A stretch of 63,467 nt of DNA, the filler included, from Reclinomonas americana ATCC 50394 (lineage: Eukaryota): assembly GCA_048213135.1 (NCBI GenBank). It is 14 parts of 14 records of this genome, joined end to end, with 100 filler letters (N's around TTAATTAATTAA, not from the genome) between each part and the next. Parts side by side here need not be neighbours in the genome. Positions count along the whole stretch, not along the records: positions 15,337 to 19,042 come from AFZH01018814.1; 13 more parts are not named here. One strand, 5' to 3'. Made by a program: the position numbers and the translations under genes. The notes under the pieces are model-generated. The model did not search any database and had not been told where the DNA came from. It saw only the letters and a program-made list of their open reading frames with translations. How positions within the stretch are numbered: position 1 is the first letter of the stretch; every line of letters begins with the position of its first letter. Below are positions 17,357 to 18,659 of the stretch, in pieces.

Positions 17357-18659
17357 TCATTCCGGCGGATCGACTGCTGCGGCTGCGGCCGACCCCGAGG
17401 CGCCCTCTTCAGCTGCCGTGGGCGGCAGGCGACTCTGCAGAAACTTGAGCAAGTCGGCGATCTCGGCGTCGCACGCCGAGTGTTGCATGCCGCGATATGT
17501 GCGGAAGTCCACCGGCACGCCCAGCTGCAGAAAACAGTGAGACAACGAAAGACGGGAATCTGTCGTGGCACTCCGCAAACACCTTCTCCAGCAGCTCCTT
17601 CGACTTGAGACCGTAGGCGTACTTGACGAGTGGATCGGCATCGCCGTGGCCCCAGAACACTTTCGTGCCCTTGCCGTGCTCCGTCAATGCCTGCGACCAA
17701 ACATGAGCAGCGCAACAACGATTGGCCCGACTGCTCACACTCACAACGCCAACCGTGACTTCCTCCATGAGACTCGGCGCGAGCGGGATGTACGAGCTGA
17801 GAGCCACAGCGCCAGCAAGAGGCTGCGGAGTGGTGAGCGCCGAGTAGATGGCCACGGCACCACCTGCCATGCACACAAGTTAAGCACTTGCAAAGGCAAC
17901 AGGAAGCGCACAGAACGCGCAGGGACCTTGACTGAAGCCGCCCACGACCACACGGTCCGAGGAGACACCAGCTGCCACCTCATCATTGATCAGCTTGTGC
18001 ACTGCCAGACAGACAGACTGTGTGAGCAACGAAAGGCACGCCCGAAACAACTGTGAGAGGAAGACCGTAATCGACACTCTGCTTGATGCCAGCCTCGTCC
18101 TCCGGAGCTCCCTCTGTCAACGCATGAATGTCATACCAACGAGGCTGTGTGCATACGCGCAGGTAAGCAGTGAGGGAAAAGGATGAGCTTGAGAGGCGCA
18201 AAGAACCACTGCAAAAAGGAGAGGCAAGCAATCAGCAAACAGTGAGACACGCAGCAAGCTGTGAGTATGAGCAAGAGCGCAACTGGGGAAGCCAAAGTTG
18301 AGAGTCACCGGTCCCGTTTGACTGCGCAGACAACACGCGCAGTGAGACACAGAGAGAGAGAGAATCACAAAGACAGAGTGTGTGAGAGAGACAACGCAAC
18401 GCAGACGGAAGAATGAACTTGACATGTGGAAGACGCGGACCAAGCATGTGCGCCACAGGGTCGTGCCAGCCAGCACCAGTGTCGCCTTTTATGACAGACA
18501 ATCAGTCACACAAAGACAGAGAGACTGAGATGATCTTTCGCGCTCACCAAGTCCATGCAAGAAGATGACTGTGGCCGAGTGCACGCCCTTTGCCTTGACA
18601 ACCAGAGGCGGAGGGTAGTCAACAGGTACGCTCGAGGAGCCACTCATCTCGCTGCCCAT
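17357..18659 (-). CDS. Acyl-protein thioesterase / lysophospholipase (LYPLA1/2-like alpha/beta hydrolase)
   Basis: IFLHGLGDTG, VTLNFGFPMPRWYDI, GGFSQGG nucleophile motif, HGDADPLV, GMQHS; 9 exons including a 2-nt exon at 18207-18208. Confidence 0.95.

Follow-up and report, generated by a model that had tools for sequence, protein, structure and literature searches.

How does a conserved gene keep its reading frame across a 139-nt stretch whose flanking exons do not fit together? The locus lies in a window (the whole stretch of DNA analysed, 63,467 nt with filler) from a GC-rich, intron-dense eukaryote. Contigs in the window are joined by runs of N with a TTAATTAATTAA spacer (for example, 19085-19142), and their ends are low-quality simple repeats. 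On the minus strand, a scripted nine-exon model that counts a TG dinucleotide as an exon gives a 777-nt open frame encoding 258 aa with 0 internal stops, and its introns measure, in order, 62, 79, 75, 62, 64, 63, 63 and 58 nt, GT-AG throughout (Table 1). The initial annotation had placed the donors, the acceptors and the TG at coordinates that prove exact on this strand, and it had predicted that a direct join would break the frame. Joining 18284 directly to 18144 does so, with a stop after residue 82, while inclusion of the TG spells a Met and restores the frame into the clean 258-aa product, as had also been proposed. Retention of the 62-nt intron is ruled out by a stop after residue 108. 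From the sequence, the TG at 18208-18207 is very probably a constitutive coding exon of 2 nt, which fills out the Met79 codon in an enzyme of the acyl-protein thioesterase (APT) type.

Table 1. Predicted exons of the thioesterase gene and the introns flanking the TG (positions along the window).
Feature	Position	Strand	Description
Coding exon 1	18548..18659	-	HGL of HGLG motif; weak PF02230 match, positions 5-23
Coding exon 2	18401..18485	-	Scripted gene model
Coding exon 3, 38 nt	18284..18321	-	Ends TTC CCC A; A is the first base of the Met codon
Intron 3, 75 nt, phase 1	18209..18283	-	Donor GTTGCG; pyrimidine tract; CAG
Predicted 2-nt microexon TG	18207..18208	-	Bases 2-3 of Met79
Intron 4, 62 nt, phase 0	18145..18206	-	Weak donor GTTCTT; branch point CTCAC (A 18171); CAG
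Coding exon 5	18066..18144	-	Begins CCT CGT TGG TAT / P-R-W-Y-D-I; PF02230 positions 64-87
Coding exon 6	17927..18001	-	Nucleophile motif GFSQG (Ser129)
Coding exon 7	17754..17863	-	Gene model; PF02230 match
Coding exon 8	17583..17690	-	HGDAD; predicted catalytic Asp186
Coding exon 9	17357..17524	-	Predicted catalytic His218 and stop codon

The stretch encoded by exons 7-8 matches Pfam PF02230 (Abhydrolase_2) at 41 bits against a cut-off of 23, and four of the five remaining pieces match it weakly, in the expected order. The solved relatives closest to the gene product are human APT2 and APT1, and the model protein is 46-52% identical to the 12 best fetched homologues. It contains a GxSxG motif and the Ser129, Asp186 and His218 triad, whose columns are invariant in a 16-protein alignment. 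The gene most likely encodes a predicted APT1/2-type enzyme of the APT1/LYPLA family. Like APT1 and APT2 (LYPLA1/2; PF02230; PDB 5sym, 5syn), the model has the HGLG, N-x4-M-P-x-W, GFSQG, HGD-x-D and His motifs; unlike them, it has an Ala-rich C-terminal tail and no Cys near the N-terminus for S-acylation. For exon 1, the closest start codon in frame is the ATG at 18659, and a further exon may lie upstream. Another ATG at 18800 (window 18800-18659, minus strand), upstream of exon 1, is present in both genomic copies of the locus and may be the start of an extra thioesterase exon or of an upstream frame.

Exon 3 encodes a loop that aligns with the tip of the APT beta-tongue, and Met79 aligns with Met69 of human APT1 (position counted from the alignment), just beyond this membrane-binding tip. 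Met69 lies four residues past Met65, mutation of which is reported to weaken beta-tongue membrane binding (bioRxiv 10.1101/2020.06.18.157545). The TG exon itself has no predicted role except to supply its two bases, and a literature search found no paper on microexons in acyl-protein thioesterases. We take introns 2 and 5 of the gene to lie at the positions of human LYPLA1 introns, judging by the exon lengths of the human gene, and the introns around the TG not to. On this assumption, the comparison with the human gene would point to both introns having been gained within the lineage, with two bases between them.

To score the possible splice forms, we used a family HMM of 16 aligned full-length proteins, chosen from 72 representative matches. 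A profile search gave 3,454 matches; the 117 new proteins among the matches listed and the 16 aligned make a set of 133 homologues that leans toward fungi and animals. In this set, matches listed included, the conserved Asn-to-Trp span is nine residues long in 133/133, and the motif residues are found as Asn in 133, Gly in 130, Met in 121, Pro in 128 and Trp in 133. The Met column is otherwise T, S, C or I (12/133, matches listed included), and Met is not invariant. The family motif given initially, N-x-G-x-x-M-P-x-W-Y-D-I, holds overall but not directly after the Trp, where Phe (75/133, matches listed included) is commoner than Tyr (57/133). Splice models from exon 3 to exon 5 were enumerated with one or two introns, GT or GC donors and introns of at least 30 nt. 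Of 3,496 such models, the frame stays open in 1,043, among which the TG model has the highest HMM score (284.9 bits; runner-up, 276.0 bits). The next model with GT-AG introns only reaches 265.4 bits, 19.5 bits under the TG model. Only inclusion of the TG gives both the family spacing and the conserved Met.

Splice signals were assessed against 146 introns predicted by a self-trained gene finder in 19 other regions of the window, a self-predicted set from hand-chosen regions cut around long introns, so that long introns are under-counted. These introns have a median of 67 nt, with 124/146 within 55-85 nt, and the division of the 139-nt stretch into 75 and 62 nt thus gives introns of the usual size, as the initial annotation had supposed. 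The commonest elements are the donor GTTGCG (24), the acceptor CAG (111) and the branch motif CTCAC (50). Donors in the window are very degenerate: GTTGCG is followed by GTTTGT, GTGTGT and GTGCGT, and classical GTRAGT donors are rare (GTGAGT in 5/146 predicted introns). Branch motifs are mostly CTCAC, CTCAT or CTGAC.

Both introns beside the TG are complete, each of a spliceable length and with its own donor, branch-point motif and CAG. Intron 3, with candidate branch points at CTCAC (A 18243) and CTGAT (A 18232), falls in the 34th percentile of the predicted introns for its donor, the 38th for its acceptor and the 86th for its branch motif; for intron 4 these values are the 6th, 38th and 45th. 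The weak downstream donor GTTCTT counts against a TG exon. The donors of introns 5, 6 and 8 are equally weak, however (0th, 12th and 8th percentiles), so weak donors are normal in this gene. A different acceptor at 18188 was rejected for its 6th-percentile score and poor branch point.

A homology-free splice and codon model, trained on other window genes and on the six other introns of this gene, puts the TG model at the top of the 130 GT-AG models with an open frame under each of three prior settings. Its weight is 0.91-0.94 alone and ~0.99 for all TG-containing models together; the same ranking in the second genomic copy gives a TG weight of 0.99. When the 139-nt stretch was shuffled with its dinucleotides preserved, YAG-TG-GT with both introns at least 50 nt arose in 11/20,000 shuffles and YAG-NN-GT, with any two bases, in 769/20,000. 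The site and its Met spelling are thus beyond chance. RNA editing and frameshifting were rejected as unneeded, and no sign of either was seen.

The genome contains the window locus (C3347) and a copy, C93, that is 95% identical and whose flanks match; C93 may be an allele or a recent duplicate. In the copy, the TG is identical, and the branch motifs are kept along with the donor and acceptor of each intron. Of the coding differences between the two, 12 are synonymous and 1 is non-synonymous, a pattern of purifying selection on the thioesterase gene. Two other matches in the genome (C447 and C1928) are degraded fragments of ~90 nt that cover exon 8 only and are uninformative on the microexon. 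In these near-identical contigs, the exon-8 fragment lies directly downstream of an unrelated gene (L003:1375-1900 in C447; L004:300-850 in C1928), and from its sequence looks like a captured gene piece.

We infer constitutive inclusion from the frameshift that follows when the TG is skipped. The same frameshift is open to another reading, in which the exon is real but regulated and skipping, through a 139-nt intron, switches the enzyme off by a premature stop. The skipped form would yield an 82-aa product that lacks the catalytic Ser, Asp and His, and the weak downstream donor would suit such control. An intron of ~250 nt, read by eye in an ABCE1-like gene of the window, makes a 139-nt intron permissible on length alone. 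Against regulation, weak donors are usual in this gene, two such close copies give no demonstrable excess of conservation around the TG, with intron 3 the most substituted, and plant microexons are described as usually failing by intron retention rather than by skipping (PMC8831610). We consider a regulated exon unlikely. Its broadest form, in which TG inclusion and skipping would toggle an enzyme of the palmitoylation cycle and the many 1-3-nt exons of the genome would belong to one class of switch, spliced without any minimum exon size, strikes us as similarly doubtful.

A simpler proposal does away with the microexon: the 75-nt stretch would be coding, as part of an exon spanning 18321-18207, and only the 62-nt intron would be spliced. 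The initial annotation missed this form, which restores the frame, since in both copies the 75 nt is divisible by three and contains no stop. In plant VPS55, the intron upstream of a 1-nt exon is also reported to be retained (PMC8831610). The product would gain 25 residues in the beta-tongue loop and lose the Met. With the family HMM it scores 263.1 bits, 21.8 bits under the microexon model, and an insertion between the Asn and the Trp occurs in 0/133 homologues (the 16 aligned and the matches listed). The homology-free test places these 75 nt with introns (-24 nats). The main argument against reading through it is the divergence between the two copies, which resembles that of non-coding DNA. 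The stretch carries six substitutions, of which 4/6 would be non-synonymous if translated, compared with 1/13 in the exons (Fisher p = 0.017; p = 0.036 once three changes beside a C-terminal indel are dropped). Translation of the stretch in the main product is very unlikely, and a form retaining the 75 nt may occur as a minor, incompletely spliced transcript.

The frame can also be kept with a single splice, if one long intron starts at another donor: GC at 18278 (134 nt, giving F-P-S-C-P-R-W), GT at 18248 or GT at 18308. Of the single-intron models, the form using GC 18278 scores best (274.4 bits), but its donor is non-canonical and bypasses GTTGCG, the most frequent donor hexamer, which lies 5 nt upstream, and its product gains one residue and loses the Met. 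The GT at 18248 reads GC in the second copy, and use of 18308 would remove nine conserved residues, including the Asn of 133/133 homologues (matches listed included). All of these donors leave the complete branch point, tract and CAG at 18209 unexplained, and we regard them as a still more remote explanation than translation of the 75 nt. An assembly error or a pseudogene, with the TG between AG and GT by coincidence, would fit the fragmented assembly and the two degraded fragments elsewhere in the genome, but is the least credible reading, given that two separate contigs concur across the region, 12/13 coding differences are synonymous, the triad residues are intact and shuffling so seldom recreates the pattern.

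How could the TG exon be spliced? Each 60-75-nt intron would be recognised across itself, by intron definition, and the two would be removed one after the other, so that the spliceosome would never face a 2-nt exon. Whichever intron is removed first, the TG would then be the end of a longer exon. The difference between a strong donor (GTTGCG) and a weak one (GTTCTT) suggests that the upstream intron may be removed first. In plant microexons, the upstream intron is reported to be more often detained (PMC8831610), which runs counter to this hint from donor strength. By analogy, pure intron definition, to which the initial annotation had pointed, is a plausible and the likeliest mechanism, and it agrees with published models as described (PMC8378409, PMC8831610). 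It needs sequential removal of the introns and nothing unique to this exon.

A strict pattern for 2-nt exons (branch motif, GCAG, two bases, GTTGCGT) occurs 4 times in the whole genome, with no excess over a broken-acceptor control (21) or a three-base version (15), so strong-signal 2-nt exons are rare and not routine even in this genome. Two of the four are a CT exon in two copies of one locus, between introns of 77 and 72 nt, at L020:547-548 (C12381, minus strand) and in L021 (C12382). The exon beside the CT matches the IP3 receptor ITPR2 (E = 0.0013), and inclusion of the CT joins this exon in frame to a hydrophobic segment. A structure search with the downstream exon gave no match. Judged on sequence, the CT is a convincing candidate for a second 2-nt exon, in an IP3-receptor/ryanodine-receptor-like channel gene, that would restore the frame into a transmembrane segment. 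Of the remaining two matches, one reads as an ordinary exon end and one is at a contig end.

Other small features were observed alongside. Candidate 3-nt exons lie between ordinary short introns at L023:1524-1526 and L027:1526-1528 (genome pattern), and in L027 another short exon appears to come next. In the window, a 6-nt exon encoding Thr-Glu is predicted at 37814-37819 (minus strand), in a gene that also has 11-26-nt exons and that we take to resemble an EVE-domain protein. A small gene, presumably similar to the Fe-S assembly protein MIP18/FAM96, has its 3′ end (window 36020-36220) repeated in a short, almost identical form ~430 nt further downstream, at 36630-36680.

Exons this small have precedents, and the rarity implied by the initial annotation was overstated, with 1-3-nt exons already documented (PMC12230235, PMC4674806). 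Long reads from Coprinopsis cinerea are reported to identify 57 internal 2-nt exons in 50 genes, which, like the TG, are internal and coding and break the frame if omitted (PMC12230235). These exons are transcript-supported, whereas the TG is predicted, and both lineage and gene differ. A constitutive 1-nt exon is described in Arabidopsis APC11, and an engineered 2-nt TT exon in APC11 was reportedly spliced correctly in Arabidopsis protoplasts but not in rice (PMC4674806). For plant microexons, consecutive removal of both flanking introns has been proposed (PMC8831610). Like the exons of APC11 (PMC4674806) and VPS55 (PMC8831610), the TG is a sub-codon exon that the frame requires, between two GT-AG introns. 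It differs in being 2 nt rather than 1 nt long, and the upstream intron given for APC11, at 333 nt, is far longer than the 75 nt here (PMC4674806). The plant 1-nt exons are described as conserved across land plants (PMC4674806, PMC8831610), whereas the layout seen here, sought by pattern in metagenomes, gave 14 loci, of which 0/14 encode a thioesterase and all read as chance.

Microexons of C. elegans flanked by very short introns are reported not to require PRP-40 (PMC8378409). The TG exon resembles those with introns of ~50-60 nt in that no special helper would be needed, which fits default intron definition; the C. elegans exons are larger and mostly in-frame, regulated and neuronal, unlike the TG (PMC8378409).

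The TG exon is a further case of the documented 1- and 2-nt exons and overturns nothing. It is an unusually clean, homology-anchored sub-codon exon in a conserved housekeeping gene, and standard annotation and short-read aligners would break the thioesterase gene at this point. With its 139-nt unit, its frame or no-frame read-out and its two natural copies, the locus would make a compact minigene for asking which intron is removed first and how small an exon can be under intron definition.
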